DNA of 40,212 nucleotides from IMG/VR virus record IMGVR_UViG_2541047498_000018. One strand, 5' to 3'. The DNA comes from a virus (lineage: Duplodnaviria > Heunggongvirae > Uroviricota > Caudoviricetes). This document shows, piece after piece, positions 6,453 through 29,252 of this stretch (position 1 is the stretch's first letter; each line of letters begins with the position of its first letter). Both the position numbers and the translations under genes were made by a program. The notes beneath the pieces are model-generated. The model was not told where the DNA came from. It made no database searches and worked only from the letters and a program-made list of their open reading frames with translations.

Positions 6453-6486
6453 TTCAGAGGGTGCATTCAGCACCCTTTTCTGTGGT

Positions 6487-9468: not shown

Positions 9469-10075
9469 TCTCTGGTCCTCCCGTTTTGCTGCCTTCACCG
9501 TTATCGTGATGCACATGACCTGAATAGGTGATCCCGGCAATAACCGCTTCGGACATCGTGAACGTCCCCTGTGATCTTCCGGTGCCGTCAATGGACACAT
9601 TGCCTTTGACATGCAGGTTCTTATCCACTGTGACATTACCGGTAAAGTGAGCCTCCGGTGTATCCACCTGAACACCTTCATCGGCGTAAATCTCCAGCGT
9701 CTTACAGGTCACAATGATCCGGCCGTTCTTTGTCAGACGTATACGGTGCCCCTCATGGTGATACACGCCGGTATCTCCGGCGGTAAGTCCGGTCGGGCGA
9801 CTGCGGCGGTCTTCCACCACAAGCACCACGGCCTGATCCCGTTGTCCGCCAGCACAGGCCAGAAAAACTTCCGCACCAGGCAGGGGGACGCTGATTTGCC
9901 CGTACTGCTGGGGGCGTTCAACGTCATCAAAGGTTTCACCATCCATACCGGTGATTTGCACATTCTGGATTTTCAGCGTGTCCGTTGTGCCGGTCAGTAC
10001 ACCACGCCCGAACAGCAGACGAACACCCCGCATCACGGGGGCCAGAAGGCGGCTGATGACTTCGTCATTCATCAT
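9461..10075 (-). CDS. Baseplate spike/assembly protein (Mu gp45-like)
   Basis: 204-aa ORF between the gp44-like and gp46-like genes, with small overlaps to both neighbours. Confidence 0.6.
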   Translation of the reverse strand: MMNDEVISRLLAPVMRGVRLLFGRGVLTGTTDTLKIQNVQITGMDGETFDDVERPQQYGQISVPLPGAEVFLACAGGQRDQAVVLVVEDRRSRPTGLTAGDTGVYHHEGHRIRLTKNGRIIVTCKTLEIYADEGVQVDTPEAHFTGNVTVDKNLHVKGNVSIDGTGRSQGTFTMSEAVIAGITYSGHVHHDNGEGSKTGGPENG

Positions 10076-11189
10076 TGAATTTAATCCCCTGTTTTTTCAT
10101 CTGTGCCCGCACGAAGGCGTCCACGTCACCCGCATTTCCGCTTCCGCTGTTTCCCGGCTCTGCCGGAACAATAAAGCCGTCACGGGGTGCCAGAATCAGA
10201 CGGGTGGTTTCGCCGTGATTTGCATCCAGCGAAAACTCCACCTGACAGACAAGAAGATCACGCTCTTCCACTCCGGTGCGGGGAGCCGTGACAGCCGTCA
10301 GCAGGTTGATATCCCACAACTGGCCGTTCTCCCGAAACCAGTGCCGCACGGTGGCTGTCAGGCGCACAGAGCGGGCAACCGCCCGGCGCATTTCCCGGAC
10401 AGCCCTCTGGCGTGCACCGTCTGCATCAACAGCATGATCCGCCAGCACAATTTTCGGTCTGTAACGGTGGATGGCACTGTCTGTCACCGTACCAACGGGT
10501 GCGGCCAGCGTTCCGGCTGTCAGTGCATCCCCGGCATGACCACCACCACGCCCGTGCCCCCGTACACGGTATTCACTGTGGCGCAGACGGTGATCCACGT
10601 TGTGATCCAAATCCAGCAGATTTTCGCCCAGCGTCAGCGTGTCGCCACGCTGACTGCCGGCCTGAGTGAAAACCAGTTCACCGGCGGCATTACTGGTTAC
10701 CAGGACGCCTCTGTGTCTCGCGGCCCGTGTCAGCGCATCTGCCACGGTTTCTGAGTTTTCCAGTGTGAAGGTGGAAAAGGGCCGGGCTGCCGTTGCATCA
10801 TTTACCTGCCAGCGCACCGTGACCCCGAACGGAGCACACAAATCTGAAGCAATGTGCTCCAGCGTGCGGTTCCTCCACTGGCTGCCCGGATGAATGGCTG
10901 AACAGTCCACCAGGTCACCGGTTTTATCCCGTCCGCTGAGCGTGATCTGAAAACGCGTGGCGCTGATGCGCTGCCGGACCTGATCCAGCCAGCCAGTGAT
11001 CACAGGCTGACCGTCAATGCGCAATTCCAGAGACTGACCGGCACGGACGGATGACGGAAGGCGTACACCGGGCATCATTACCCCCAGTTCAAAGGAGCCC
11101 GCCAGATGTTCAAGAGAGCGACGAACACTCACCGTCAGCCAGCCGGAAAAAATCTCACCGCCCAGATACAGTTCAACCCTGCTGCTCAC
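10065..11189 (-). CDS. Tail/baseplate hub protein (Mu P/gp44-like, P2 gpD-like)
   Basis: 374-aa ORF following the N-like gene, in the Mu P position. Confidence 0.65.
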   Translation of the reverse strand: MSSRVELYLGGEIFSGWLTVSVRRSLEHLAGSFELGVMMPGVRLPSSVRAGQSLELRIDGQPVITGWLDQVRQRISATRFQITLSGRDKTGDLVDCSAIHPGSQWRNRTLEHIASDLCAPFGVTVRWQVNDATAARPFSTFTLENSETVADALTRAARHRGVLVTSNAAGELVFTQAGSQRGDTLTLGENLLDLDHNVDHRLRHSEYRVRGHGRGGGHAGDALTAGTLAAPVGTVTDSAIHRYRPKIVLADHAVDADGARQRAVREMRRAVARSVRLTATVRHWFRENGQLWDINLLTAVTAPRTGVEERDLLVCQVEFSLDANHGETTRLILAPRDGFIVPAEPGNSGSGNAGDVDAFVRAQMKKQGIKFNDE

Positions 11190-12543
11190 TAATCACCTCC
11201 ACTGAATGGCCTCCGGGAATGAACAGCGGATCAACAATACCGTTACGGCGCACAAAACGTTGCCAGCCGGTACTGTTCCCGGTGGCACGGTACAGGGTCA
11301 CCAGTGCAGGCTCGGTGGTACGTACAGTCACTACTGTTGCACCGGGTAGCTGAACTCCCCGTGTATTCAGATCCTCTGTCAGTGCCAGTCTGGCATCACG
11401 AAGCGTCAGCGCCGTGGCGGTATACCCCTGCCCGGACAGTGTCATCACCTGCCGTTCGAGCGCTTCGCTTAAGTCACGGTTAATGCGCTGAAGATCAACT
11501 GAACTTTCCAGCCAGACAGGCCAGGTACGGTGGGCTGCGTCACTGTCCGGCAGGGTTTCCTGACTGAGAACCTGATCCAGCAGTTTTCCCACGGTCTGTG
11601 CCTGGGCCACCACGGCAGCACTCTGCATTACCGCCCGTATCAGACGAATATTCTTTTGTGCTGCCGGTGTCAGACCGATGAGAGTCTGCGGATTATCCTG
11701 CTCATCCAGCACGTAACGCAGGGAAGATAATGTCCTGTACAGTTGCGGCATTCCCTGAGAGAAGGCGGATGTCGTCCGGCCGATACTGCCACCGGGCCGG
11801 GTATTCAGGCCTCCTGAAGACAGTGACGGCAGCGATGGCAGGGTGATCAGGGCACTGAAAAGCCCCGCAAAAGATGAGGCCATGCGGGAAGGTGCTGTCA
11901 GTAATGCCGTGGCATTCCCTTTCAGCGCCGTGAACGTGGCAGTAAAGGCACTGATATCCTGTACAATCCCCATGCCGGAAACGGCATTTTCCAGGGCGGA
12001 CACCTTATCGCTGATGGTTTCGGTCATTGCCTGGACATCGTGCATTCCGTCAGAAATCACCGTCCAGCCCGCTTCCAGGGTTTCAAAAACCTTCCCGAGC
12101 GCGGTGGTACTCTTCTGCTCCAGAATGGCGGCCGTGTCCTGTGTGACAGCAGGTGCGGTATCATCACTTACCGGCGTGACATTAATGGTGAACTCAACCA
12201 CGCCCTGTTCAGCAGCGTTATAACGACTTTCAAAGCTGTTTATCAGCACATTTAACGTGCCGTAATCCGGGTGAAGCAGCTCCCCGGCACCGGGAGCACG
12301 AAGGGCATCACGCAGACGATTTCGCTGTGTCTGAACATCATCCCCCATCACAAGTACACTGAACGTAAATTCAGCCAGTTTAGGTCCCAGATCGTCTGCA
12401 CCACCGGTTTCCCGTAACGGATATTCCCGACGGACAATGTTTCGCCCGCCACGTTCGCGCTGCTCACGCCAGACGAGGAACGGCACACCACGGAACGCAC
12501 CACGACCGTCACCAGAGGCCATAATTCCCTCCGTTCCAGACAT
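11173..12543 (-). CDS. DNA circularisation protein N-like (Mu gp43-like)
   Basis: 456-aa ORF directly after the tape measure gene. N-terminal FRGVPFLV motif as recalled for the Mu N family. Confidence 0.65.
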   Translation of the reverse strand: MSGTEGIMASGDGRGAFRGVPFLVWREQRERGGRNIVRREYPLRETGGADDLGPKLAEFTFSVLVMGDDVQTQRNRLRDALRAPGAGELLHPDYGTLNVLINSFESRYNAAEQGVVEFTINVTPVSDDTAPAVTQDTAAILEQKSTTALGKVFETLEAGWTVISDGMHDVQAMTETISDKVSALENAVSGMGIVQDISAFTATFTALKGNATALLTAPSRMASSFAGLFSALITLPSLPSLSSGGLNTRPGGSIGRTTSAFSQGMPQLYRTLSSLRYVLDEQDNPQTLIGLTPAAQKNIRLIRAVMQSAAVVAQAQTVGKLLDQVLSQETLPDSDAAHRTWPVWLESSVDLQRINRDLSEALERQVMTLSGQGYTATALTLRDARLALTEDLNTRGVQLPGATVVTVRTTEPALVTLYRATGNSTGWQRFVRRNGIVDPLFIPGGHSVEVISEQQG

Positions 12544-14584
12544 TCACATCCAGTCCGTGACCGGACGTGTCATCAATATCAATACTGCGAGCCTGCCACC
12601 CTTCCGGGGCAACCAGCTCCACACGGGCAGAGGCTTTTTGTACCGCCTGTCCACTGCTTTCATCATCACTGCCCCGTAATTTCTGCCAGGCTTCAGTCAG
12701 CCATCCCCCCAGATAGTTACCGAGATAGCTGCCCACCGTAGAACCAATGGCAATCCCCACAGGTCCGGCTGCCGCCCCCAGCGCACCACCGGCAATACTG
12801 CCTGCAAGAGAGCCGACCGCTTCTCCCTTGTCTGTGGCACTGGCGCTGCCATCCAGCAGAACCGGGGCTGCCATCGCGCCAGCCCACAGGGCACCGCCAC
12901 CCAGCCGGCCGGCCAGTCCACCGGCACTGCGGAAAAAGCCGGAGAAACGCCCCAGCCCCATGCGGCTACCGACAGACGAAAGTAACCCACCGGCGCGCCC
13001 CATCATGCGCCCCCAGAACCCTGCCCCACCAGAAGAGGGAGACGGTGGCACTGGGGACGGTGGCAGGGGAGGCGTGACCGGTCTTCCGCGCCCCGGTCCG
13101 CGTTTCCTGCGGCCCCGCCCCTGACGTCCGCCTGAGGAAGTATCGGTCGCGCCGGTGCCGGACAGTCCTCCTGTGGGCCAGTTTGTTACAAGTACTGGCT
13201 GAACGGCTGCCGGATTTACCCCGGTAAGAAAGTTTATAAAACGTTGCCCTCGTCCCTGAGATGTGCCTGGTGGTGTTCCGGCCGGAGGAGAGCGCCGGAA
13301 AGGTGAAGTCAGGAAGGCCGCCGCTGATAATCCGTATCCCAGCAATGCAGCACCCGGACGTATAATCCCCGTTCCGACAGCCCGCGCCATTTTCAGGGCA
13401 CGGGTGGCGAGATACATGTACAGCAGGTATTTCGCGGCGGTCTGTGCCCCCTGACCAATGCGATCCAGCGCATCACCATAGCCCGCATCCCGCAGAGCCT
13501 GAAGCGTGTCGCGTACCTTTCTGATCGCCTGATAAAACCCTGTCACTGCATCACGGGCATACTCAAAGCCCTGGTTCATGGCTGATGCCGTGCTTTCCGC
13601 CAGGGAATGGTAACTGCCATCAGATTTGGCACTGTCAACCCATGAAAGAAATCCCCTGAGATTACCCTTCAGTTTTTCAAATGGCCCACTGTCCATCACA
13701 TCCCGGGCAAACTGATCCCAGACGTCACCCATCATGGCCGTCAGGCCACTCCAGGAATTCATTGCGTCCTTTTGTGCTCCCCTGGCCTGTTCCGCCAGCG
13801 TCTGAAATAACAGGCGAATACTGTCCGGCCCAAGCAGCCCTTTTTCACCAAGTTTTCTGACCACTTTCTGGTCCACACCCAGACGATCAGCCAGCACGCG
13901 GTAGGCATTAATGCCGTAGGTGGCAAGAATATTTGCATCCGCCGCCTGAATACTGCCTCTTGCATACATCTGTTTCAGTTGCAGGGATGCCCCCTGTGCA
14001 TCGGACAGTGACCAGCCGCCCACGGCACCCTGATCCTGAAGCATGGTGACAAAATTTCGGGCCTCCCTGTCACTCATACCAAAGCCCAGACTGGACGTAT
14101 ATTCCTGCATGACGCCAGCCAGCCCCCAGGTGGTTTCCTTCGCATTCTGTATTGCCCACCTGCGGACATCATCAGTTTTCGCCCGATCCCCTTTGTAAAG
14201 GGAGTTCAGGCGAATCATATAGGTTTCCATCTCCGCTGCCGGGCGAATAAATCCCCGGTTAAAGCCATATACAGCAGCACCACCGGCCAGCATTCCGTAA
14301 AGATTGCTGATCCGCCCGATGGTGCCGGTAATACTGCCCTGAAGACGGTCAAAATCAGAAGTGACATGGCGGATACTGCCCCGCACCCCGGCCAGCGTGC
14401 GCTGCATCCTGCTTCCGAGTACATCTGTTTCCTGCCCGGCACGGCGGGCAGCATTTCCCAGGCCACCCAGCCCCGCCTGGCCGGAGCGTGAGAATGCCCC
14501 CAGCTCCTGTGACCACTGGCGGGATTTGGCTGAGATATTGCCGAGCAAATCAACTATCAGAGATGCTCTGAGATTTCGGGCCAT
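12509..14584 (-). CDS. Tail tape measure protein
   Basis: 691-aa ORF with an ATG at 14584, downstream of the tube and chaperone genes. It has a Gly/Ala-rich, low-complexity C-terminal region typical of tape measure proteins. Confidence 0.85.
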   Translation of the reverse strand: MARNLRASLIVDLLGNISAKSRQWSQELGAFSRSGQAGLGGLGNAARRAGQETDVLGSRMQRTLAGVRGSIRHVTSDFDRLQGSITGTIGRISNLYGMLAGGAAVYGFNRGFIRPAAEMETYMIRLNSLYKGDRAKTDDVRRWAIQNAKETTWGLAGVMQEYTSSLGFGMSDREARNFVTMLQDQGAVGGWSLSDAQGASLQLKQMYARGSIQAADANILATYGINAYRVLADRLGVDQKVVRKLGEKGLLGPDSIRLLFQTLAEQARGAQKDAMNSWSGLTAMMGDVWDQFARDVMDSGPFEKLKGNLRGFLSWVDSAKSDGSYHSLAESTASAMNQGFEYARDAVTGFYQAIRKVRDTLQALRDAGYGDALDRIGQGAQTAAKYLLYMYLATRALKMARAVGTGIIRPGAALLGYGLSAAAFLTSPFRRSPPAGTPPGTSQGRGQRFINFLTGVNPAAVQPVLVTNWPTGGLSGTGATDTSSGGRQGRGRRKRGPGRGRPVTPPLPPSPVPPSPSSGGAGFWGRMMGRAGGLLSSVGSRMGLGRFSGFFRSAGGLAGRLGGGALWAGAMAAPVLLDGSASATDKGEAVGSLAGSIAGGALGAAAGPVGIAIGSTVGSYLGNYLGGWLTEAWQKLRGSDDESSGQAVQKASARVELVAPEGWQARSIDIDDTSGHGLDVNVWNGGNYGLW

Positions 14585-14710
14585 ACTTACTGCTTCGTTC
14601 TGATGATTTTTTCTGTCTGTCGGCAGTGCCGGTAAAGTTGCGACAGGGGGAGGTTAAGCGCCCATTCCGGACCGCTTTTTGTCACCATCCCCAGGATAAT
14701 TGCCGCTTCT

Positions 14711-15205
14711 TCAATCTGATCCCGACACTGCGCCTGATCGCCCCCGGTCAGCTGCCAGCTTTCCGGCAAGCGCGGTATCCAGCAGGCTGACCGCTGCCAT
14801 CAGGCGGGAGAGATCGCGCTCGCTTAACTGTCCAATCTGACGGGGTGACAACGGACCTTCAATGTCTCCCACTGCGGCAATCTGACGGCGCAGCAGTGCA
14901 ACACCGCGTAACGACGGAGACGCTATCAGCATCGGGCCATTGTTTGTCTCCACCACGCGCTCGGCTTCTGCTTCTGCGTCAATACTGTCTTTCGCTGTCA
15001 GTTCCCGGAACGTGACACGATATTCACGGGTCTCACCAAACGGCAGACCATCAAGCAGATCCACATATCCCTTTGCCAGTTGCTCTGTCAGCCCGGCAGT
15101 GCGTGGATCAGCCCCCTCAAGTGCTTCCCGGATTGCCTCCATCACGGCTGCCTCGGAAACTGCCGTTTTTTTCTTACGTGTGGTCATTTTATTTTTCCTG
15201 ATCAC
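14711..15205 (-). CDS. Tail assembly chaperone-like protein (Mu gp41 position)
   Basis: ORF between the tail tube and tape measure genes. A downstream overlapping out-of-frame ORF (14587..14769) is present (see findings). Confidence 0.5.
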   Translation of the reverse strand: MIRKNKMTTRKKKTAVSEAAVMEAIREALEGADPRTAGLTEQLAKGYVDLLDGLPFGETREYRVTFRELTAKDSIDAEAEAERVVETNNGPMLIASPSLRGVALLRRQIAAVGDIEGPLSPRQIGQLSERDLSRLMAAVSLLDTALAGKLAADRGRSGAVSGSD

Positions 15206-15567
15206 TGAACACGGGTACTGGAGGCGCTGGCGAACTTCACGGAGATCTCCCCGCCACCGTCAAGCGAGGCCGGTTCACTGCTCCAGGCCTTCGTCATCAT
15301 GTGGACTTCGCCGGTATCCGCCACAAACTCGATAGTGACCGCAGTCCAGTTGTTGATTTCATCGGCGGCTGGTGAACCTTCTCCGCCTGCCGGAAATTTG
15401 CAGTCCAGCGTCGCTTCACGTGGTTTCTGGCGGTAACCATAGACTTTTGCGCCTTTCACCACTTCACGTTCAAAACCAGACGGAGAAAATGTAGCCCCCT
15501 CAAGCGTCTCGTATTCCTGACCGTTCACACGGATAGTGGCCGTACCCTGATACTGTTTTCCGCTCAT
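15202..15567 (-). CDS. Tail tube protein (Mu M-like)
   Basis: 121-aa ORF immediately downstream of the sheath gene. Confidence 0.7.
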   Translation of the reverse strand: MSGKQYQGTATIRVNGQEYETLEGATFSPSGFEREVVKGAKVYGYRQKPREATLDCKFPAGGEGSPAADEINNWTAVTIEFVADTGEVHMMTKAWSSEPASLDGGGEISVKFASASSTRVQ

Positions 15568-15575
15568 GCCTTACC

Positions 15576-17078
15576 TCACAAAATGAAACGGATCTGTGCT
15601 GCCAGGAAGCGGAACTGGTTAACCAGATCCGGCGTGCATAACACGTCAAGACGGTTTCGATCTGACGCATTACGCTCCACAAGCAGATTCTTTTTAAAGG
15701 TGTCCAGATTTTCGACCAGCCCGAGTTCCACCCACTCTTCACCCAGCGAAATTAACTGAAGCTTCATGATCTCCGGCGTCACGATATTCTGACCGGCACG
15801 AACGGGCGTCCCGTCATCAGCCAGTTTATGGCGCGGAAAACGTTGTGTGATAAAAGTACGCAGGGAATAACGCAGCCAGGAGAGGGTGTAGATGGTTTCC
15901 ACATCCAGATAGCTGGGATCACTTTCGCCGTACACGTTCTGGCGATACATGGTCACCTGACGTTCGATCTGAACCACATCACCGGCAGCCACACTGACCG
16001 TGGCAATCCCTCCCCACAGCAGACTGTTACGCTCTTCACGCGTCAGACGATCGGCCGGAGCCGGGGCCATGCGTGACGGAAGCGCCAGCGTCTGAAGCGG
16101 ACGCGCAGGATCTGCTCCCAGAGAGGGTGCACAGGTGGCACAGACCGCCGCTGCCCAGAGGTAATCCGGTTCAGGGGCTTTGGGAATGGATGTGCAGGTC
16201 GCCAGAAAATCATTGCGTTTTGCCCCGAATGCCTGCACCTCACCAAACGTGCCGGTATGTGCCAGCCACAGCACGCCGTCAGACATTTTGGCCGGTCCCC
16301 AGCGTTTCAGAAGCTCATCACTGATGATTTTCAGGTTTGCATCATCCTTATAGGGCATGACGACATAGTTGTACTGGCGATCGCCCATACCCGCCACGCT
16401 TCGGGTGATATCCGGGTTAGCCGCTTTTTGTTTCGGATAGGCTATAGCGACCTGTATTCCTTCCGGGGTTGCTTCCCCGTCGTGATAGTTCAGGCGCACA
16501 TCATGAACGGAGCATTCACCGGTAAAGCGGGCGGTGATCCCCAGAGACCCTTTCAGACCTGCGCCATTATCACCACTTCCTGCACCAGAGGAGGCCGTGA
16601 AGGGCGCGTCAGGATCGGCATTGATCAGCGCGGCCAGCTCGTCGGTCAGTTCTTTGCCTTTCTTACCTTTTGGTGCCGGGAGTGTATAACGCCGCCCCCC
16701 CACGCAGGCATAAACAATCCCGTCACGGGTGACCGTTCCGGTCAGATTCATGGCCGCAGCCGTTGCCTGTCCGGTGCCGTTCCCCTGAGCAATGGCATAC
16801 AGTTCAGCATCAGGATTGATGGCGATAAATTCCGCCACCATCAGGGCAATCATGGAGCCGCGCCCCCAGAGTTCTGTTGCCTGAGACGCACGGGTGATCC
16901 TGACCGGAACATCCAGAACACCGGCACCGTCCACGGCATTCTCTTTCATTCTCGCCTGACCAAACAGCAGCACACACTGACGCTGTGCCGGAGTGCCGGT
17001 GACAGCCATGGAGTTATTAAACTCAACCTCAATCAGCGGTATACGGCGGTCATTACCGATCCCGTCAAAATTAATCAT
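15576..17078 (-). CDS. Contractile tail sheath protein (Mu L-like)
   Basis: 500-aa ORF upstream of the tube gene, with the size and position of the Mu sheath protein. Confidence 0.8.
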   Translation of the reverse strand: MINFDGIGNDRRIPLIEVEFNNSMAVTGTPAQRQCVLLFGQARMKENAVDGAGVLDVPVRITRASQATELWGRGSMIALMVAEFIAINPDAELYAIAQGNGTGQATAAAMNLTGTVTRDGIVYACVGGRRYTLPAPKGKKGKELTDELAALINADPDAPFTASSGAGSGDNGAGLKGSLGITARFTGECSVHDVRLNYHDGEATPEGIQVAIAYPKQKAANPDITRSVAGMGDRQYNYVVMPYKDDANLKIISDELLKRWGPAKMSDGVLWLAHTGTFGEVQAFGAKRNDFLATCTSIPKAPEPDYLWAAAVCATCAPSLGADPARPLQTLALPSRMAPAPADRLTREERNSLLWGGIATVSVAAGDVVQIERQVTMYRQNVYGESDPSYLDVETIYTLSWLRYSLRTFITQRFPRHKLADDGTPVRAGQNIVTPEIMKLQLISLGEEWVELGLVENLDTFKKNLLVERNASDRNRLDVLCTPDLVNQFRFLAAQIRFIL

Positions 17079-17320
17079 TGCGGTTTCTCCTTATCGGATG
17101 CCGGTTGGGCGACCGGTTTTTCTGTCGCAGTCGTTGCATCCGCAGATACAGCCGGAGCCTCTTCAGCGGCTTTTTCAGCCTGAATGACATCGCCGTCATC
17201 AAGACGCCGACACCAGAACGGCGTAAAGGGCTTTTCCTCCCCCTCCTGTGCCAGCGGGCGCATTGTGTCGGGATCACGAATCAGGCGTCCCGGCGCGGGT
17301 TTGATAAAGATGGTTTTCAT
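17075..17320 (-). CDS. Hypothetical protein (Mu gp38-like)
   Basis: 81-aa ORF with small overlaps to both neighbours, between the head and tail blocks. Confidence 0.5.
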   Translation of the reverse strand: MKTIFIKPAPGRLIRDPDTMRPLAQEGEEKPFTPFWCRRLDDGDVIQAEKAAEEAPAVSADATTATEKPVAQPASDKEKPQ

Positions 17321-17881
17321 TTACAGTTCCTCCGGCGGTTCGACCGCCGTTGTCGTGTTCCCCGGCAAATCAATATGTGCCTCAAACGGCGGCGTACCGG
17401 GCGGCTCCACAAAGGTTTCGTAATGACGCAGGAAGTCGTCCAGCGAGCTGGTATCGGTCAGCGGTGCGATCATTTCCTCGCAGGAGAAATAAAGCGCATA
17501 CATCACCGCACCACTGTCCGCCTGGGTTTCGGTGTAACCGTTGACCGCCTTTTCAAAGTAAAGCGGTGAGGTTTTTTCTGTTCTGAAGCCGTTAAGCACG
17601 GCAATCAGCCGGGCCACAATCTGATACAGTCCGGGACGGCTGGCCTCACGCCCGTTGAGCATGTCGCCGATGACGTAGAACACCCAGTGACTGACCAGGC
17701 GACCACGGGTACGGCCTTCACCGGCACCCAGCCAGGCAACGTAGATCGCCGGGGCGTTAATCAGCATGGTGCGCAGTACGCTGTCGCTCCAGTCGCCGGG
17801 ATGCGTGTCAACAGACACCAGTTCATTCCCGAAATACTCACGGATACGGGCGATGTATGCCTGTTCGGTTTCCGTAATCAT
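17321..17881 (-). CDS. Head-tail joining/neck protein (Mu gp37-like)
   Basis: 186-aa ORF in a contiguous operon at the Mu gp37 position. Confidence 0.55.
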   Translation of the reverse strand: MITETEQAYIARIREYFGNELVSVDTHPGDWSDSVLRTMLINAPAIYVAWLGAGEGRTRGRLVSHWVFYVIGDMLNGREASRPGLYQIVARLIAVLNGFRTEKTSPLYFEKAVNGYTETQADSGAVMYALYFSCEEMIAPLTDTSSLDDFLRHYETFVEPPGTPPFEAHIDLPGNTTTAVEPPEEL

Positions 17882-18297
17882 ATGAAGCCCTTCTGGTTGC
17901 GCCCGAATACCGCTGCATCAGACTGAACCTGTGGTAAATCCCCGGATTCAGGGGCCGCACCGTTCGTATCCACACCGACCGGCACATTGCCGTTCATGAC
18001 ATCTTTCAGCCAGGCCAGCGCTTCACGGTAACGGTCACGCGCCTGATCGGAGGCTCGCTGATCGCACAGGTAATAAAAGGCAATCGCGCAACAGTGCTGA
18101 ACAAGAACGGCCGGAATAACCTCCAGCGGCAACGTGTAACGGGCGGACAGATAGCTGTCGATAAGGGCTGACGCATCTGTCAGCGCCCGGTTCAGCTTGC
18201 GCGTGTCCGGCTCATCCGAACGGGGCACAGCCAGTAACGGCCTGAGCAAATCCTCGCGGTAACGCGCCCGCATATCGGTTTCAGTGGCGTAATTCAT
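17878..18297 (-). CDS. Head-tail connector/neck protein (Mu gp36-like, DUF1320-like)
   Basis: 139-aa ORF in the conserved position between the major head gene region and the tail genes. Confidence 0.55.
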   Translation of the reverse strand: MNYATETDMRARYREDLLRPLLAVPRSDEPDTRKLNRALTDASALIDSYLSARYTLPLEVIPAVLVQHCCAIAFYYLCDQRASDQARDRYREALAWLKDVMNGNVPVGVDTNGAAPESGDLPQVQSDAAVFGRNQKGFI

Positions 18298-18668
18298 GCA
18301 CGGGCCTGTTCCGCTTTGTTACCGGTCTTTTTCCGGGGAGCATCCTGTCCGGCTTCGGCTTCGGCTTCGGCTTCGGCTTCGGCTTCGGCTAAATCTGTAC
18401 CGGCCACTGCATGAACCACACCCGCCACGCTCCCCGCATCATCAGCAGACGTCTGTAGTATTCGCACAGTGAGGCATGGCTCCTCCTCCAGTCGGGCAAG
18501 CTGCTCCGGGGTGACCTCAACCTGCTGACGTCCACGCGTGAACAGGAACCCCGCACGACGAAACGCCGAACGACTGCAACGCACTTCTGCCAGCACCGTG
18601 ACAGAATTGTCACCACTGACCTGAAGACCTGAATCATCTGTTGCTGCCACAGTGTGATGTTCATTCAT
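18294..18668 (-). CDS. Hypothetical head-region protein (Mu gp35 position) containing an (Ala-Glu)n tract
   Basis: 124-aa ORF directly downstream of the major head gene. Its C-terminal AEAEAEAEAEAEA is encoded by a hexanucleotide repeat. Confidence 0.55.
   Translation of the reverse strand: MNEHHTVAATDDSGLQVSGDNSVTVLAEVRCSRSAFRRAGFLFTRGRQQVEVTPEQLARLEEEPCLTVRILQTSADDAGSVAGVVHAVAGTDLAEAEAEAEAEAEAGQDAPRKKTGNKAEQARA
18351..18390. repeat. Perfect hexanucleotide tandem repeat (GGCTTC)x6 plus a partial copy
   Basis: Directly visible on the plus strand at 18351-18390. On the minus strand it reads (GAAGCC)n in frame inside the 18294..18668 gene. Confidence 0.95.
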
Positions 18669-18711
18669 ATTTGCCCTCCGCAGGGGCCGGGCCGTAAGCC
18701 CGGCTCACCGT

Positions 18712-19659
18712 TTACAGATAATCCGCGACAACCAGCTCCAGCTTACCCTTCATCTCGTTAGAGACGGTTGCGTTTCCGTCTGCGAACAGTTCACGCTCCA
18801 GCAGCTGCACCGCCTGTTTTTCCAGCGAGGTGGGGACAACAATATGGGTGGGTTTAATGCCGAGTTTGCGGCCACCGTCAGCGGTAAATTCGCGCATGGC
18901 TGACCAGCCGTGCCACAGTGCATCCAGCGTCAGCGGTGACTGCATCATGTAGGCCATCTGCCAGAAGCCGTAGCCCACATTGCGACGGGCGGATGCACCA
19001 AACACAAATTCGTTATCGGTGAATGCGCGACCTTCATCGACTTTGGTCTGGGCAACCAGTTCAGCCTTACGGCGATCCTGATAAATCAGCGGTTTTACCG
19101 CGCGGGAGCAGTCAAGCAGATACCAGGCCGGACCGCTGTAATCAGCCTGTGCGCCGACAGAGCCGGTTTTTGCCACAAACATATTGCTGACCATCTGCGC
19201 ATCCCCGGAGCCATCCACTTTGGGGTAAACCGGATGTTCGGTATCAAAGAAGTTCTGACCGTCATAGCAGGCCGCACTGATCCCGTCACGCAGGGCAGCA
19301 AAGACCAGCTCATCCGGTTGTACCGCCGCAGCGCGCCCCATCTCCTGGAACAACGGGGAATAAATACCGAGGTTGTCGTCTTCGAAGTCATCGCGGCTAA
19401 TGGCGACAGTGCCTTCAAAAGTTTTGTTCACGATGGCATAGCCATAGGCTTTCATCTTCTCGATGACGCGGGAGCCGATCCACTCACGGAACTGCGGGAA
19501 CTGCCCCAGCCAGCCGTAGGTGTTGGATTTCGATGTGGAGGGCACGGTCATCGCAATTTTTTTATACTGCGACGGGGCCATGGACATCCCGGCCTGAAAA
19601 TCAGAACGGTAGCCCGTCATCAGGGCTGTGATCATCGCCGGTGTAATCGGGGTAGGCAT
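18712..19659 (-). CDS. Major head (capsid) protein (Mu T-like)
   Basis: 315-aa ORF immediately downstream of the protease/scaffold gene, at the Mu T position and size. Confidence 0.8.
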   Translation of the reverse strand: MPTPITPAMITALMTGYRSDFQAGMSMAPSQYKKIAMTVPSTSKSNTYGWLGQFPQFREWIGSRVIEKMKAYGYAIVNKTFEGTVAISRDDFEDDNLGIYSPLFQEMGRAAAVQPDELVFAALRDGISAACYDGQNFFDTEHPVYPKVDGSGDAQMVSNMFVAKTGSVGAQADYSGPAWYLLDCSRAVKPLIYQDRRKAELVAQTKVDEGRAFTDNEFVFGASARRNVGYGFWQMAYMMQSPLTLDALWHGWSAMREFTADGGRKLGIKPTHIVVPTSLEKQAVQLLERELFADGNATVSNEMKGKLELVVADYL

Positions 19660-20783
19660 TATTGCATTTCCTCTTTCATTTTCAGGAACTCGGCTTCGGT
19701 TTTACCCAGCAGTTTGGCGGCCGCGATATCTTCAGCCGACAGCGCAGCGGTGGCAGTCTTTTTATCCGGCACGGTCACGGTGTCGGTCTGAAGAGAGGTC
19801 AGGGCCGCAACCGGCTGGCGGGCGTCAAGCTGTGCAGAAAGTGCCGCAACGCCAATCTGCCCGCCCAGTTGTTCCAGATAGCCGCGTTCGCTTTTGAAGA
19901 TGCGCCCTTCGGATTCAGCCTTGTCCAGCACCTGCTCCAGCGTGGTGCTGCCGTGCTGCGCCGACAGCGCAACGTATTCGGTACGCAGGGCGTTATACGT
20001 TTCAACGGGCACGTATTTCGTCAGATCAATAATGCCGCCAGCCGGTGTGCCTTTTGCGGTTTCCAGCTCTGCCGACAGACTGGCGACCTGTGTTTTCAGG
20101 TTGTCGTGTGCATCCGCACGGGTTTTGATCCCGGTGAGGGCAGACAGCGCCGCCGTGCCCAGCTCCGGCGTAAATTCGTCACCGTCAGCCACGGTCAGAC
20201 CGAGCGCCGTCAGCAACTGGCGTAATTGCTCATTCATGGAGGTATCCTTTAAAGGAGGGTTTAAGGCGTTATAAAGGTCATCCGCCGACAGCGCGGCGAC
20301 AGGATTCATGCCGGTCAGACCGGGGTCACCGGTAATAGCCAGCATCCGAAGTTCGACAGGTTCGCCGGTGTTCTCGTCATAGCCAATCACCGGTGAAAAC
20401 CAGGGGAATTCGTTATTACGCAGATGTTCAAGGGCCGGAGGGTTCCACTTCGGGCGCACCTCGAAGCCACGCTCTTCACTGAAGCGAAAATTCTCCGGTG
20501 AGGCCATCACAAAACCGGCAGCCGGTGCCTGATGCCCCTTAATCAGGGTCTGGTGGTTGTAGTCAATTTTCACCGGCTGATTGAGCGCCACAACCCGGGA
20601 TACCATGCGCTCAACGGTCGCACGGTTAATCAGCCAGCCCTCGGCCGGTTTTTCCGGGCGACCGTCACGGGCCTTTACCCGACCGGCTGGCATGATCTGA
20701 CACCAGTCACCGTCCCCGTCTGCGGACAGGCTGATGGCATTCAGAATGGCATAAGCAAGTTTGGGCGTGTTTTTCGTCTTCAT
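19659..20783 (-). CDS. Head maturation protease / scaffold protein (Mu I-like, with nested Z-like C-terminal scaffold region)
   Basis: 374-aa ORF between the G-like gene and the major head gene. Ala/Leu-rich, coiled-coil-like C-terminal half. Confidence 0.7.
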   Translation of the reverse strand: MKTKNTPKLAYAILNAISLSADGDGDWCQIMPAGRVKARDGRPEKPAEGWLINRATVERMVSRVVALNQPVKIDYNHQTLIKGHQAPAAGFVMASPENFRFSEERGFEVRPKWNPPALEHLRNNEFPWFSPVIGYDENTGEPVELRMLAITGDPGLTGMNPVAALSADDLYNALNPPLKDTSMNEQLRQLLTALGLTVADGDEFTPELGTAALSALTGIKTRADAHDNLKTQVASLSAELETAKGTPAGGIIDLTKYVPVETYNALRTEYVALSAQHGSTTLEQVLDKAESEGRIFKSERGYLEQLGGQIGVAALSAQLDARQPVAALTSLQTDTVTVPDKKTATAALSAEDIAAAKLLGKTEAEFLKMKEEMQ

Positions 20784-20959
20784 TCCGGCAGCATAAGCCG
20801 GGAATTTTCAGGGCGGGTTTTGCGGGATTTCAGGAAGTGCTTCCAGGGGAAAAATACAAAGGCGCTTCACGCAGATTTTAAAGCCCGTTAAATACAGGTT
20901 AGAAAATCACGACACGCGCCTGAAGGGGGTAAGGTAATGCATTTGCATACCTTAAACAA

Positions 20960-21433
20960 TTAAGGCGTTTCTGTGGCCTTTTTAAAGCGTTTTCTGATTT
21001 CGTCCATGATCTCCTGCTCTGCCACCTGATCAAAGCCCATATACGGGCGTGCGCCAATGGCCGCCGGTCCCGGTGGCATACCAGGCAGGCCACCCCACTG
21101 ATGAATGGCCGCATAAGGCTCATTTGATCCAATCAGCGCCCAGGTATCGCCATAATCCGTGGTCAGGCGTCGGGCCAGATCGCCGTTCAGCGTCAGGATT
21201 TTGCCGGGCATGTATCCCTTACGGGTACGCCACTTGCGGTAAGGATCTGACCAGTCATGCCAGCGTTCGCCGTCCGGCTCTTTTTCCTGTTCAAACGCCA
21301 TTTCTGACGATGACAGAAGACTCGCCGCCACACTGCGGGCCAGGTCTTTCCCTCCACCCACAAACTGAAGCCGGGCAAAGACCCGCTGGAGACGCGTAAC
21401 GTCAACAACGACAGCGGCATCAATGGATGACAT
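20960..21433 (-). CDS. Virion morphogenesis protein (Mu G-like)
   Basis: 157-aa ORF downstream of the Mu-F-like gene, followed by a 176-bp non-coding gap before the protease gene. Confidence 0.6.
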   Translation of the reverse strand: MSSIDAAVVVDVTRLQRVFARLQFVGGGKDLARSVAASLLSSSEMAFEQEKEPDGERWHDWSDPYRKWRTRKGYMPGKILTLNGDLARRLTTDYGDTWALIGSNEPYAAIHQWGGLPGMPPGPAAIGARPYMGFDQVAEQEIMDEIRKRFKKATETP

Positions 21434-21554
21434 ATTGCCTCCGCATAAAGGATGAATATAAAATAAACAGGCGGTCAGTGTACGCTTAACTGGTAAAGTC
21501 GGTGCCTGCCTCCGGGTGGATCATGTATGCGGGTTCAACCCCCGCCACTGACCG

Positions 21555-22886
21555 TTAATCAATATCTCCTTCCAGTACCTCAAGCATTCCACCCCGGATA
21601 TCCGATTTCAGCTTATCCATATTGATAACCCGGTAAGCATTCACAATCACATCCAGTTTATCCGGCTGACGCTTCAGGCTGTACGGCGCATTAACGGCAA
21701 TCTGCACACTGCTATCCTTACTTTCCACGATATACATCAGATTGTTGTGGCGTTTGTCCCACAGCACCGCTTTTGGCTTTGCCAGCATTGCCGGTAATCG
21801 ACCGAAATCCTCCGGCGTCAGGGCGATACCGTCATTCTGATGTTTCATGCTGTCCGCATGGAGCACATTTTTACCGCTCATCGCCAGCAGGCGGGCCGGT
21901 GGCGTTCCCGTCCGGCTTTCCACCGCCTGCGCAATGCTTTCGGTCATAAAGCCCAGCGTGCGGATATCGTTACCGCCTCGCCGGGTTTTCATGATGTTTT
22001 TTGCCCAGATGCGGAACGCCAGCTGCCGCTCCGGGCTGTTGTTCATCTCCTGCACTACCATTTCCCGCAGCGCCGGGCTTTTCACCTCGATCAGTTTACG
22101 GATCAACGCCTGGTCTGTGCCGAACGCCGCCGAGCCGGGGTTATATGACCAGCCCACATCCGGTGTCATGGTTCTGGTGCCATCTGAATATGTGGTCACC
22201 GGCATTTCTCTGACTTCTCCGGTCTGCTTATCCACGCCAGCCTCAACATTGCGGGTGGAAAGATGATCCTGACCGGATGAAACGGATAACCCCATTGCAT
22301 CCAGACGGGTCTGAGACAATGGCCGGACACGGCAGCGGCAGTTCCAGCCATTGGGTGGGTAGTGTGTATTCCAGAACGGATCGTCATAGCGGAATACCTG
22401 CCCGTTAAGGGCGGAATGCGCCGGGCGGGTGCGGCTGTCCATCACCGCCACATACTGCCAGAACGGATGCGTGTCCGTGTTGTTCATCATCTGCGTGTAA
22501 CGCCCGGCATTGTAAGCCACGCGGGTGTTCACGTTGTAAATCAGCGCCAGACGGCGGGGACTGCCCAGTTGCACTTCTTCTGCGTTACCGGCGCTGTCCA
22601 CCACAATCTGCTTTCCCCACCATCCCAGCTTTTGCAGGCGGGGTGTCAGTGTGCGGATAAATGCTTTCTGTGAAATCCCCTCATCAACAGCACGCTGCAC
22701 TTCCGCCTGTAGTGTGGTCAGTACGTCCAGGCGTGCCACTTTTGCCGCCGTGAATGAACGGGCATGAACATCCGCGTCTGTTTCGAACCAGTTCCAGCTG
22801 ATATGCGCCCCTTTGGCGCGGAAGTATGCCACCGCCTCTTTTGAGGGAAGCGTGGCGGCATAACCTAAATCAATCCCCTGTGCCAT
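21555..22886 (-). CDS. Phage Mu F-like head morphogenesis protein
   Basis: 443-aa ORF downstream of the portal gene, with a GWNCRCRV motif characteristic of the Mu F-like family. Confidence 0.8.
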   Translation of the reverse strand: MAQGIDLGYAATLPSKEAVAYFRAKGAHISWNWFETDADVHARSFTAAKVARLDVLTTLQAEVQRAVDEGISQKAFIRTLTPRLQKLGWWGKQIVVDSAGNAEEVQLGSPRRLALIYNVNTRVAYNAGRYTQMMNNTDTHPFWQYVAVMDSRTRPAHSALNGQVFRYDDPFWNTHYPPNGWNCRCRVRPLSQTRLDAMGLSVSSGQDHLSTRNVEAGVDKQTGEVREMPVTTYSDGTRTMTPDVGWSYNPGSAAFGTDQALIRKLIEVKSPALREMVVQEMNNSPERQLAFRIWAKNIMKTRRGGNDIRTLGFMTESIAQAVESRTGTPPARLLAMSGKNVLHADSMKHQNDGIALTPEDFGRLPAMLAKPKAVLWDKRHNNLMYIVESKDSSVQIAVNAPYSLKRQPDKLDVIVNAYRVINMDKLKSDIRGGMLEVLEGDID

Positions 22887-24468
22887 CCAGCATCCCCTTC
22901 ATTTCCGCAGCAAACATGGCATCACTGAGCAGCGTCATCAGGCGGGAATCATCCATTTCACGGTAAAGGGCAGGCAGGTCTGCCAGTGCCTCCGCCAGCC
23001 CCCGCGTTCTGATGGCTTCAATGACCGGCTCCAGTACCGGGTCGATGGCCTCCTGTAACCGGCGGGCAGGCACCGCATCCCCCATGTCGTCCAGTTCATC
23101 TCGGGGGCTGCTCTTCGCTTCCGGCAGTCTGGCAGCCAGCGCTGTCTGCTCTGTCTTCTCCTGTTTTTCCGGTGGCATCTCTTTGTCTGTCTGAGCAGGT
23201 TCATTGCCACTCTGACGGACACGGAAGATGGCTTCACCGGGGGCAGGCTGTGGAATACCGGTCTGCTCCCGCACCCAGGGATCAGGAATATCCATCCCCG
23301 TACTGAGCTGCATCACCGCACTGGTGATTTTGGTGATATCCCCCGGCTCTTTTGTCTGGAAACAGATACGCGGCAGGCGACGGATATCAATGGCGTGGGC
23401 GGTGTTCAGGGCATACAGCGGATACACCAGATCGCGGTTCAGCGTGGCGGCCAGCTGACGTAAATCAGAATCCCTGATTTCCCGGCGCACCTCGTTATGC
23501 ACTTCACCCAGCGAACGTGCGCCCTTGTCTCCGGCTTCCGTGGTCAGCGTGCCGCCGAGGATAGCTTTGGAGATGGAACGCTCCCCCCACGAAATCATGG
23601 TTTCAAACGGATCGGCCTGACCGTTCGCTGCCGCCTGAAACTCCAGCGACATCCCGGCCGGGATGATCCCGCCTGTACGTCGCCCGATATCCATCACCGC
23701 CCGCATCAGGGCGCTTTTCTGCTCCGGTGTTGCCCCGGACGGGTATTTACCGACCTTCATCGGCAGGCCGTACACCTCCAGAAATTCAGCCAGATCGCGC
23801 ACGGAATAGTTTTTGAAAATGAACGGCCAGATAAGCGTTCTGACAAGCCCCGTCGCACCACCGTAGCCAGTGCGTGAACGCGACTGATGCACTATCCAGC
23901 CAAAGGGCTGAAACGCCACCCCGGCATGGCTGCCGTCACGCAGCCGCAGTTCGCTCAAATCATCCGGGTTAAGGCAGAAATGCCCGCTGTCACGCCAGCG
24001 GATGGCGCGGATGATGTGCATTTTACCGAGCATCCCGTGCTCAATCTCCATGCAGGAATAGCCTTTCAGGATGGCATCGGTGGCATCAAACAGCATGGCA
24101 TCAAACCAGTCGGCGGAATGCAGGTATTCGTCGAGCATTTCCGCGTCCTTTTTCTCATTCGCGCTGGCGTTCGGGGGCGGCTCAATACTCCAGGGCACCC
24201 CCTGAATGGCAAGACGTCGCTTGCCCAGCTCTGCAAAAAGATGGGTATCCTTTTCTTCAATGTCAGCGGCCAGATCGGACTGGGCAATCAGATCGCCACG
24301 TTCAGCCCCGCGAAGGCACTGTGCCGCCCGGTTCGGGGTGATACCCGAGGCCGGATGTTCAATATAACGGCTGGCAATCTGCGGAATATCCAGCACGGCA
24401 CTCTGCATCTCCGGGTCAAAGGAGAAAGGTTTTCCGTCAAGATCAATTATGCGTCCCACTACCAGCAC
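22870..24468 (-). CDS. Portal protein (Mu H/gp29-like)
   Basis: 532-aa ORF immediately downstream of and overlapping the large terminase gene. Confidence 0.8.
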   Translation of the reverse strand: MLVVGRIIDLDGKPFSFDPEMQSAVLDIPQIASRYIEHPASGITPNRAAQCLRGAERGDLIAQSDLAADIEEKDTHLFAELGKRRLAIQGVPWSIEPPPNASANEKKDAEMLDEYLHSADWFDAMLFDATDAILKGYSCMEIEHGMLGKMHIIRAIRWRDSGHFCLNPDDLSELRLRDGSHAGVAFQPFGWIVHQSRSRTGYGGATGLVRTLIWPFIFKNYSVRDLAEFLEVYGLPMKVGKYPSGATPEQKSALMRAVMDIGRRTGGIIPAGMSLEFQAAANGQADPFETMISWGERSISKAILGGTLTTEAGDKGARSLGEVHNEVRREIRDSDLRQLAATLNRDLVYPLYALNTAHAIDIRRLPRICFQTKEPGDITKITSAVMQLSTGMDIPDPWVREQTGIPQPAPGEAIFRVRQSGNEPAQTDKEMPPEKQEKTEQTALAARLPEAKSSPRDELDDMGDAVPARRLQEAIDPVLEPVIEAIRTRGLAEALADLPALYREMDDSRLMTLLSDAMFAAEMKGMLDGTGD

Positions 24469-26123
24469 CCCCGATCAAATTCATGATATGCCTCATCGTC
24501 ATCACGATAACCGCCCTCCATGGCCCGCGACCGCTCCGGCAGCGCCTGGCAGGCTGATTCATCCAGGATAAAGCCCTCCATGTATGACGCCCGGTTTGCC
24601 ATACAGAGCGCCACGGCAAAATCACCATGGCGGCGGGCGTTCACAGCTGTTGCGTTCTGGTCCTTCGTACGCCCCTTGTCGATTTGCGGGATACCGTTCA
24701 CCACCTTCACATGGCGCAAATCATCAAGCGTGGTCTGATGGCGGGCGACGAGGATATTCTGATCCTCAAACTCGGCCTTCAGTTTTGGCATCCACTCGCC
24801 GTACCACTTCGGCGATAACATCACGCAGTCGATGATGTCCGGGCCAAAGGCCAGCAGCGCGGCTTCGGCCAGATAGCCGCCGTTACCGGTGGCGTCGAAC
24901 GCCGCACCGACCAGCGCCGGAACGCGGGTCAGGATGTACATCATCACCTGCTCCTGCTGGGCATACGGCAGGTTGCGCAGCTCCACGCGAAACACCTCGC
25001 GTTTTGCCAGGGATTCAGTGATTTCCAGCAGCACAAAGCAGGAGAGGTCACCGGTGCGGGCAAAGTCTTCCCCGAAGCTGAAGCGGGAACGGGGATTTAA
25101 CGCCTCTAAAAGCGGTTTTAAATGTTCTTCACACCAGGTTAAAACCTCCGATTCACGCAGCCATGCGGCACGGCTGATGAAGTCGTCCGGGGCTTCAAAC
25201 GTCAGAATCGGGATGTCGCGGATCATCGCCATTTCAATAAGCGCGTGAGGAATATAGGCACCGCCGGATTTTTTCGGGATACAGCCGTATTCCTCGTCGG
25301 CATCCTCACGGGTCGGGGCGTTTTTGTAGAGATCATCACGCCACTTCTGCTCGCTTTCCGGTGACCATTCGCGGCCGGTGACATAACAGATACGACGGTA
25401 CAGCCCGTCCGCAATGGCATCATCCAGGGTTATGCGGTGGACACTGTAATCCTTGCGTCCCTCGCGGGCTTCCTGAATGTACTGATTAAACAGATTATCG
25501 ACGCCGTTATGCGTGGAGATAATACGCACGCGCGCGCCCCACATGGTGAGCGCCATTGCCGCCTTGAGAAGCTCATCCAGTGACTCGTGGAACGCGGCTT
25601 CATCAATCACCACATCCCCCTGAAGGCCGCGCAGGTTTGACGGACGGGAAGACAGTGCCTGAATTTTGAATCCACTGTTCGGAAAGCGGATCATGTAGGT
25701 CAGAATTTCTTCTTTTTTATCCCGATCCCAGAAGGTCTGCTCATACACATCAGCATCGGCCAGCTGGTTAAAGGCACGGGAGAACAGTGCGCAGGCAGAA
25801 ATATATTCCAGCGCCATCTCCTGCTTTGACCCCACATAAAACACATTACGGCCACCACGACGCTTAGGCTTTGCGGCGGTAATGACGTTACGCCCGGCTT
25901 CCGCCCAGGTAAGCCCGGTGCGGCGGGATTTTTCCGCGATGCAGACCTCACTTTCATCCTCAAACCAGCGGGCCTGATAATCCAGAAACACCGGCATATC
26001 ACCGGGCAAATCAAGGCTGTCCGGCACATCCACGCCCAGCAGGGCTTTTTCACCGGCCAGATCAATTTTGCGGGTGGAGACGGTATTCGTCAGTAAGGGG
26101 GAGAGTTCTTCGGCGTTATTCAT
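24459..26123 (-). CDS. Terminase large subunit (Mu gp28-like)
   Basis: 554-aa ORF between the small terminase candidate and the portal gene, at the Mu gp28 size and position. Confidence 0.8.
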   Translation of the reverse strand: MNNAEELSPLLTNTVSTRKIDLAGEKALLGVDVPDSLDLPGDMPVFLDYQARWFEDESEVCIAEKSRRTGLTWAEAGRNVITAAKPKRRGGRNVFYVGSKQEMALEYISACALFSRAFNQLADADVYEQTFWDRDKKEEILTYMIRFPNSGFKIQALSSRPSNLRGLQGDVVIDEAAFHESLDELLKAAMALTMWGARVRIISTHNGVDNLFNQYIQEAREGRKDYSVHRITLDDAIADGLYRRICYVTGREWSPESEQKWRDDLYKNAPTREDADEEYGCIPKKSGGAYIPHALIEMAMIRDIPILTFEAPDDFISRAAWLRESEVLTWCEEHLKPLLEALNPRSRFSFGEDFARTGDLSCFVLLEITESLAKREVFRVELRNLPYAQQEQVMMYILTRVPALVGAAFDATGNGGYLAEAALLAFGPDIIDCVMLSPKWYGEWMPKLKAEFEDQNILVARHQTTLDDLRHVKVVNGIPQIDKGRTKDQNATAVNARRHGDFAVALCMANRASYMEGFILDESACQALPERSRAMEGGYRDDDEAYHEFDRGCW

Positions 26124-26704
26124 CAGGCTTTACCCAACAGAATTCCCTTAATACGGGACTCAAGCTGTTCACTCATCCCGTCCACGCCGCGCAGCTCGTC
26201 GGTAACCGCGTTTGCCATCTCTTCAGCAAATGCAGCCCGGATTTCTTTTTCACGTTTAATGCTGCGCTCGGCGGCACTTTCCGCACGCTGTGCTGACAGG
26301 AGGATGTCCTTAATAAGACGCATATCCACGTCGCTGTCACTGTTCAGGGATTCGGTCGCGGCACGCAGACGGCGGTACATCAGGGCGCGGGACATCTCCA
26401 GAATCAGTGCCGTGGTTTCACCGGTCGGCTTGTCCCCCAGTTCGGCCATCATGGCTTTTGTCTGCTCGCGTAAATCACGCAGGTTACGGGCAATCAGCTC
26501 ATTACGGGAGGCTTCCCGGCTGATGGCCGCCGGTGAAAGCTGCTGCTCTTCCGGCAGGCCTGCCTCGCGGATCAGACGGTTGATTTCCTCGCGGATCTGG
26601 ACCTGCGTCAGACGTTTTTCACGCAGCATTTCCAGCAGTGGCTTACGGATGCTGTCGGGGAGCAAATCCACCTTGCGCACGCGGCCACGCGTCGGCTTGT
26701 CCAT
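26123..26704 (-). CDS. Candidate terminase small subunit / DNA-binding packaging protein (Mu gp27-like)
   Basis: 193-aa ORF immediately upstream of the large terminase gene. Charged, helical sequence. Confidence 0.5.
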   Translation of the reverse strand: MDKPTRGRVRKVDLLPDSIRKPLLEMLREKRLTQVQIREEINRLIREAGLPEEQQLSPAAISREASRNELIARNLRDLREQTKAMMAELGDKPTGETTALILEMSRALMYRRLRAATESLNSDSDVDMRLIKDILLSAQRAESAAERSIKREKEIRAAFAEEMANAVTDELRGVDGMSEQLESRIKGILLGKA

Positions 26705-26706
26705 CG

Positions 26707-26997
26707 CTACCCCCTTGCGCGTGGTTTCTTCACACCCGGAACGGTGGCGCGGCCTTCCGCCACATCCTGACCCCGGCCGGTCAGTTCAGCGATGAAATAA
26801 CCATTAACGAGCGTGCGCTTACGCACCAGCCCCTGCTCGGCAAGCCAGGCAATATGAGTATGAACGGTGTCGCGGGACACGCGGTGACCGTAATCATCCA
26901 GACAGTCCTGGAGCACGGATTCACCCAGTTCGCCGTTGTAATCCGCCAGCGACCGCAGAATGACAAGACGCTGATCTTCAGTAATGAAATCACTCAT
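26707..26997 (-). CDS. Hypothetical protein, possible winged-helix DNA-binding fold
   Basis: 96-aa ORF tightly packed upstream of the small terminase candidate. Fold guess only. Confidence 0.4.
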   Translation of the reverse strand: MSDFITEDQRLVILRSLADYNGELGESVLQDCLDDYGHRVSRDTVHTHIAWLAEQGLVRKRTLVNGYFIAELTGRGQDVAEGRATVPGVKKPRARG

Positions 26998-27302
26998 TGT
27001 GTTTTTTTCCTTACCGCCTGCTCCAGCAGCAGTTCGTTCTGATAGGAGACAGAGCGGAGCGTGGCGTTCGTGGTTTTCAGTTCACCCCGCAGGGTCACGA
27101 TTTCCACATTCAGACGGTTGACCTCGGCTTCTGTCGGCAGTGACGACAGGCGGGTTTCCACCTTCTCAACGCGGTCGGAGAGTTTTTCAAAGGCCTCGCG
27201 GGGGACAAACGTTTTGCGCATCAGCGCCATGAATATCCCGCCAGCGGTTGCCGTCGCCGAAAGGATCGGCACAACATAATCTTTAACGATGCTGACCCAC
27301 AT
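26994..27302 (-). CDS. Hypothetical membrane protein with N-terminal transmembrane helix and coiled coil
   Basis: 102-aa ORF with hydrophobic segment VVPILSATATAGGIFMALM and a charged helical C-terminus, next to the lysis cassette. Confidence 0.45.
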   Translation of the reverse strand: MWVSIVKDYVVPILSATATAGGIFMALMRKTFVPREAFEKLSDRVEKVETRLSSLPTEAEVNRLNVEIVTLRGELKTTNATLRSVSYQNELLLEQAVRKKTQ

Positions 27303-27510
27303 GACGGGCCTCCATGATGTTCTGGCAGTTCACACAACGGATGGCATCCGGCACAGCAACAAGACGTGCGGCGGGGATCTCTCCGCCACAGTCCGCGCAG
27401 ACACGTCTGCCCGGAGCATCCATTGCCCGGCGCTTACGTGTCAGCCGGTTACAAAGGGCGCGTTCTGATCCCCGCTCCATCACAGCCTGAGCACGATCTG
27501 AATCATCCAT
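27283..27510 (-). CDS. TraR/DksA-family C4 zinc-finger protein
   Basis: CADCGGEI...(17 aa)...CVNCQ pattern at the C-terminus. Start assigned to the ATG giving MDDSDRAQA...; the track ORF extends upstream to 27576. Confidence 0.65.
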   Translation of the reverse strand: MDDSDRAQAVMERGSERALCNRLTRKRRAMDAPGRRVCADCGGEIPAARLVAVPDAIRCVNCQNIMEARHVGQHR

Positions 27511-27520
27511 ACCTTTTTCC

Positions 27521-28686: not shown

Positions 28687-28757
28687 TGTTACGCTGTCTC
28701 ATGATGTTCTCTGAGTCAGCGTAACGGTGAAGGAGAGGCGGCAGGCTTTGCGGAATA

Positions 28758-29183: not shown

Positions 29184-29252
29184 ATCAGCCTCCGGTTCTC
29201 GCGTTCCCGGTAAGTTTAAAATAAAAATCCCGCGTTGTGGCGGGATTTGGAG

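Follow-up and report, generated by a model that had tools for sequence, protein, structure and literature searches.

The contingency loci of Haemophilus and Neisseria are hypermutable arrays of perfect short units in coding sequence, with unit lengths that are not multiples of three and that lead to on/off expression. The Ser-Asp repeats of the staphylococcal Clf/Sdr proteins are in-frame dipeptides encoded by short DNA repeats, whose length varies between strains and is used for typing; they are much longer than the tract described below, and a spacer role in the cell wall has been demonstrated for them. In Escherichia coli O157, hexanucleotide VNTRs used for typing include O157-3, O157-9, O157-17, O157-19, O157-25, and O157-37 (PMC10062581). 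The same source uses EHC-5, a locus in the 17-locus MLVA scheme of Japanese public-health institutes for EHEC O157, O26, and O111, and cites Izumiya et al. 2010 (Microbiol Immunol 54:569) as the origin of the scheme.

According to PMC10062581, EHC-5 is absent from the majority of O157 isolates in clades 7 and 8. The repeat numbers given there are 3, 7, 13, and 14 for clade 2; 2, 6, 7, 10, 11, 12, and 14 for clade 3; and, in part 1 of the table, 2 and 5 for clade 12. Within the O157 clades of that study, PCR fragment typing thus scored the locus as absent or as variable at 2 to 14 repeats, a pattern expected of a repeat on a mobile prophage. Where it lists EHC-5, PMC10062581 handles the locus as a marker without protein context; here we provide its coding context.

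We analyzed a stretch of 40,212 nucleotides from a tailed-phage record of IMG/VR (IMGVR_UViG_2541047498_000018), referred to as the window. Tandem Repeats Finder identified an array of period 6 with 6.8 copies, 100% matches, and 0 indels (Table 1), which was the only case in the 40 kb window of more than three copies at 100% identity. On the plus strand, the array reads C(GGCTTC)x6GGCT, with head-to-tail exact units at 18351..18386 preceded by C and followed by GGCT; read on the coding strand, it is (GCC GAA)n. A three-unit GGCTTC probe gave four overlapping matches in the window and none in 100 dinucleotide-preserving shuffles.

We then compared the array with EHC-5, using the primer sequences of S5 Table of PMC10062581. 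Both EHC-5 primers match the window exactly, face each other, and enclose the array in an amplicon of 151 bp with 6 units (18311..18461), and the remaining primers of S5 Table gave no match in the window. Because the two primers match exactly and bracket the array, it is, as judged from the sequence, the already published MLVA marker EHC-5, with nothing different at the DNA level.

Table 1. Positions of the repeat array, its host gene, and surrounding features in the window
Feature	Position	Strand	Basis
Perfect hexanucleotide array, repeat of EHC-5	18350..18390	-	Tandem Repeats Finder, sequence, shuffle control, translation
EHC-5 reverse primer CCGCTTTGTTACCGGTCTTTTTC, exact match	18311..18333	+	S5 Table of PMC10062581
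EHC-5 forward primer ATACTACAGACGTCTGCTGATGA, exact match	18439..18461	-	S5 Table of PMC10062581
Mu gp35 / HI1506-related gene, 124 aa	18294..18668	-	ORF, Pfam, phrog, PDB, RefSeq name
Folded N-domain (FluMu_N), residues 25-75, beta-beta-alpha-beta	18444..18596	-	AlphaFold2, Pfam
Predicted disordered C-terminal tail, residues 77-124	18297..18440	-	pLDDT <50, alignment
Shine-Dalgarno GGAGGG	18674..18679	-	5 nt 5' of ATG 18668..18666, read from sequence
gp36 (head-tail adaptor), downstream	17878..18297	-	Pfam Phage_Mu_Gp36, E 3.5e-35
gpT (major head subunit), upstream	18712..19659	-	Pfam Mu-like_gpT, E 6.6e-119
Mu I protease/scaffold	19659..20783	-	
gp37	17321..17881	-	
DUF2635 protein gene		-	
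Tail sheath	15576..17078	-	

EHC-5 resembles the O157 VNTRs in its short unit, high polymorphism, stepwise gain and loss, and use in outbreak typing (PMC10062581). It differs from them in lying on a transposable Mu-like prophage, which accounts for its absence from many strains; in its own case the host gene belongs to the structural module and the array is translated as a dipeptide repeat. Like the Clf/Sdr Ser-Asp repeats, the (Ala-Glu)n tract is an in-frame, length-variable dipeptide repeat that serves for typing, whereas a spacer role has been demonstrated for Clf/Sdr only. With the contingency loci it shares a hypermutable, perfect, short-unit coding array and, probably, the mutational mechanism, but its 6-nt unit keeps the frame through 16 alleles. 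The array is thus a known and ordinary hypervariable coding VNTR with little new biology. What our analysis adds is that EHC-5 rides a transposable Mu-like prophage, so that the locus may be gained or lost by phage movement, and that it is translated as (Ala-Glu)n within the predicted disordered tail of gp35.

The gene that contains the array encodes a 124-aa protein reading ...GTDL-AEAEAEAEAEAEA-GQDAPRKK..., in which AEAEAEAEAEAEA is followed by GQDAPRKKTGNKAEQARA. The (Ala-Glu)6-Ala tract occupies residues 94-106 in frame. The Pfam family FluMu_N (PF17891) scored 35.3 bits over residues 36-72, above its gathering cutoff of 25.8. A match to phrog_3622, whose function is unassigned, covered the entire protein (E 1.9e-80), and there was another to HI1506 / FluMu gp35 of Haemophilus, an NMR structure (PDB 2OUT, E 1.5e-4). 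RefSeq names the fetched E. coli homologues "HI1506-related protein", and the homologue in E. coli O157:H7 Sakai is ECs_4975 of prophage Sp18. Both the FluMu_N domain, scoring above the gathering threshold, and the gene position between gpT and gp36 in a Mu-like late operon are common to the HI1506 / FluMu gp35 family and the E. coli protein. An earlier note, made from the letters alone, had described an exact in-frame (GGCTTC)x6 repeat in a head-region gene, and both the repeat and the location hold, with the gene now placed between those of the major head subunit and the head-tail adaptor. The gp35 stop overlaps the gp36 start in ATGA, an arrangement that suggests translational coupling of the two genes. 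Together with this overlap, the Shine-Dalgarno sequence and the phrog and Pfam matches mark the gp35 ORF as a genuine gene. In the cryo-EM of the Mu virion, gp35 is absent from the resolved parts (PMC11915804).

Apart from the array, about 39.3 kb of the window (~475..39758) is ~100% identical to Mu-like prophages of cattle E. coli. The outer segments, 1..474 and 39759..40212, are unlike the sequences flanking near-identical prophages in complete genomes. The window holds a complete Sp18-type Mu-like prophage of ~39.3 kb, placed by its differing flanks at another insertion site, and the combination of an identical prophage with different flanks fits Mu-type transposition. The gp35 gene also occurs in two Stx-converting phage records, LC727881.1 (53827..54197) and LC727895.1 (26891..27279), in stretches annotated as "region of the inserted Bacteriophage Mu-like phage", indicating that the Mu-like phage inserts into Stx prophages. 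In the locus from E. coli O157:H7 PA20 (L013, 1..1285), the tail sheath gene is annotated as frameshifted in an otherwise near-identical prophage, indicating that some prophage copies are decaying. A further observation concerns the marker EHC-6, whose absence frequency in O157 clade 2 equals that of EHC-5 (0.76 for both in S3 Table of PMC10062581). The EHC-6 primers gave no match in the window, and EHC-6 may be carried by another mobile element that travels together with this phage or by a variant form of the Mu-like prophage itself.

To place the tract within the protein, we examined an AlphaFold2 model of gp35. Mean pLDDT by block was 82-90 for residues 21-70, the segments scoring below 50 were residues 14-18 and 77-124, and the model is confident for about residues 25-75. 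The predicted disordered tail is composed of a short linker, the (Ala-Glu)n tract, and the basic end GQDAPRKKTGNKAEQARA, and only 18 residues remain after the tract. HI1506 itself, in work attributed to Sari et al. 2007, reportedly carries a three-helix C-domain after a flexible linker; E. coli gp35 lacks most of such a domain.

Distant relatives from Edwardsiella and metagenomes share the N-domain, followed by a variable linker and a helical C-domain of ~45 residues with the motif RIRDAVAxL..DNPxHFTxxGKPKVAAV..LG..VT..QIDAAL. In the alignment that bears on the missing C-domain (18294..18440, minus strand; P0084, P0087, P0090-P0094, and P0097), the (Ala-Glu)n tract falls at the place of the first C-domain helix of the relatives, and the E. 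coli protein ends 18 residues further on. Thus, while HI1506 and the relatives outside E. coli carry a three-helix C-domain, Sp18-type gp35 of E. coli mostly lacks it and has (Ala-Glu)n and an 18-residue basic tail. In two protein searches, one covering 5.8 billion and the other 1.84 billion entries, the (Ala-Glu)n form was limited to E. coli and Shigella. The full HMMER search of the 1.84 billion representatives yielded 14 hits and a handful of distant relatives, which sufficed to reveal the missing C-domain, and a GTDB scan with one genome per species found no relative. In some representative proteins the tract contained impure units (AG, VE, AK, and SE), and the basic end occurred in two variants.

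We next investigated how the copy number varies among related prophages. A megablast search with the gp35 gene found matches in 228 of 5,426 complete E. coli genomes. The allele count rests on 53 listed complete-genome records with an alignment across the array, evenly spaced down the similarity ranking and hence a non-random sample; these contained 16 alleles with 1 to 18 units, and all span differences were exact multiples of 6. The 20 loci that we fetched and read carried 1, 2, 4, 4, 5, 6, 7, 8 (Sakai), 9, 10, 11, 12, 13 (three loci), 14 (two loci), 15, 16, and 18 units. The only impure unit among them, GGTTTC, was in L020, the most diverged locus, whose allele has 2 units. The anchors on either side of the array were identical in all 20, and the genes beside gp35 were annotated as intact across the fetched alleles. 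An independent scan of IMG/VR added 17 further loci with 11 alleles (1, 3-9, 11, 14, and 17 units).

The length of the array changes on backgrounds that are otherwise invariant. Loci with 5, 13, 14, 15, and 16 units, against 6 in the window, showed 0 differences from it across 4.8 kb of flanks. Five clonal cattle isolates with 13 or 14 units had 0 differences over 20.3 kb, and another isolate from the same cattle-strain record series carried 15 units. These results show that the rate at which perfect GGCTTC units are added and removed far exceeds that of point substitution, with polymorphism from 1 to 18 units and differing lengths between zero-SNP flanks. The earlier note had suggested that slipped-strand mispairing could make the copy number vary between related prophages without breaking the frame, and had proposed a comparison across relatives in which a constant number would count against it; the number varies, and every difference keeps the frame. 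It had also suggested that the array may change the length of a charged linker. The charged segment does change in length, with a net charge of gp35 of about -3 at 1 unit and about -20 at 18 units, but in this E. coli lineage the segment lies within a predicted disordered tail and does not join two folded domains.

We consider it highly probable that the array is a hypermutable coding VNTR, namely EHC-5, that is driven by slippage and nearly neutral, in the Sp18-type Mu-like prophage of Shiga-toxigenic E. coli. The perfect short-unit repeat, the many alleles on identical backbones, and the single-unit differences in the cattle series point to replication slippage (slipped-strand mispairing), which would generate length changes mostly in single-unit steps. 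As the unit corresponds to two codons (Ala-Glu), each allele would remain in frame. The length changes are probably neutral or close to it, given that the tail is predicted to be disordered where a domain was lost and that 1 to 18 units occur beside genes annotated as intact. In the modelled protein, a C-terminal tail at the site of the lost C-domain would allow gp35 to tolerate 2 to 36 extra acidic residues, and the tolerance of 1 to 18 units suggests that the length of the gp35 tail is not critical. Against neutrality, the spread in net charge could matter for a protein that has been proposed to bind nucleic acid.

One alternative, which we regard as unlikely, is that the length of the acidic tract is adaptively tuned. 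The number of (Ala-Glu) units would then govern some feature of gp35, for example its reach, its charge, or how the tract competes with DNA for the basic N-domain and the basic tail, and selection would have favored hypermutability itself as a contingency mechanism by which the phage diversifies its particles. The alleles indeed span a very wide range with the arrays remaining pure, the net charge differs by 17 charge units across alleles, and the tract is flanked by a basic tail and by a folded domain that is weakly basic and rich in arginine. However, the purity of the arrays is already expected from frequent slippage, the tract is predicted to be disordered and stands in place of a lost domain, and it has no known phenotype. 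Lengths from 1 to 18 units also occur on identical prophage backbones, and neither the 53 listed records nor the fetched loci gave any sign of preferred ones. In addition, the variation arises in lysogens, in which the late structural genes of temperate phages are presumably silent. We give still less credence to the stronger proposal that the hypermutable acidic tail is a selected generator of diversity in a head- or connector-associated phage protein. If this were true, (Ala-Glu)n length would change the interaction of gp35 with the packaged DNA or the connector, and the particles released by a lysogen population would vary in stability or in how they eject DNA.

Another possibility is that the length changes come mainly from unequal homologous recombination, or from gene conversion, among the multiple Mu-like prophage copies of one genome and not from slippage. 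In some genomes the gene matches at 2 to 4 places, and copies within Stx prophages and at varying positions in the chromosome indicate that the phage transposes. The present sequence data fit slippage and unequal recombination between prophage copies alike. Nevertheless, we consider recombination a very improbable main source of the variation, because genomes with a match have a median of one such place and the cattle set shifts by single units (13, 14, and 15). RecA-independent slippage classically acts on arrays of this kind, with 6-nt units and a length below ~120 nt. Where a genome has several prophage copies, recombination between them could contribute.

That the copy-number differences are artefacts of assembly or sequencing at a low-complexity site is hardly credible. 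Many database proteins labelled "partial" break off within the tract or close to it (P0058, P0064, P0065, P0068, and P0070), and the IMG/VR contig of one locus (L021, 11608..11674) stops within the array, indicating that short-read assemblies break at the repeat. Finished complete genomes vary too, however, each length difference is an exact multiple of 6, and no array exceeds 113 nt, which is shorter than a single read. Fragment-length typing by PCR in public-health laboratories independently finds EHC-5 variable, as far as the typing data of PMC10062581 extend, and the agreement of this typing with the finished genomes led us to abandon the artefact reading. Phase variation was rejected, since the unit is a multiple of three inside an ORF, the 53 spans differ as described above, and all fetched alleles keep the ORF, whereas phase-variable loci switch expression through a shift of frame or of promoter spacing; the array is therefore a length-variable tail and not an on/off switch.

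Several minor observations concern the repeat and its surroundings. One E. coli protein of 119 aa (P0073) reads ...VWWFMQPAGTKPKPKPDEGYSRKK..., with the repeat translated in another frame as (Lys-Pro)n and apparent compensating frameshifts on both sides; it represents either genuine variation or an error in sequencing. A 117-aa protein from an ENA metagenome (P0086), with a precomputed EAL-domain Pfam hit (PF00563) and the end AEAEAEAEAEAGQDAPRKKTGSKAKPARKARA, appears to be an assembly chimera at the repeat or to mark a recombination joint there. On the plus strand, an antisense ORF of 58 aa (18296..18472) carries (Arg-Leu)n across the GGCTTC array and is in all likelihood a side effect of the repeat rather than a gene. 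Elsewhere in the window, near the prophage end, an A-rich imperfect repeat of period 21 with 2 copies, for which periods 4 and 9 were also scored, lies at 39163..39204 inside the plus-strand ORF 38769..39482.
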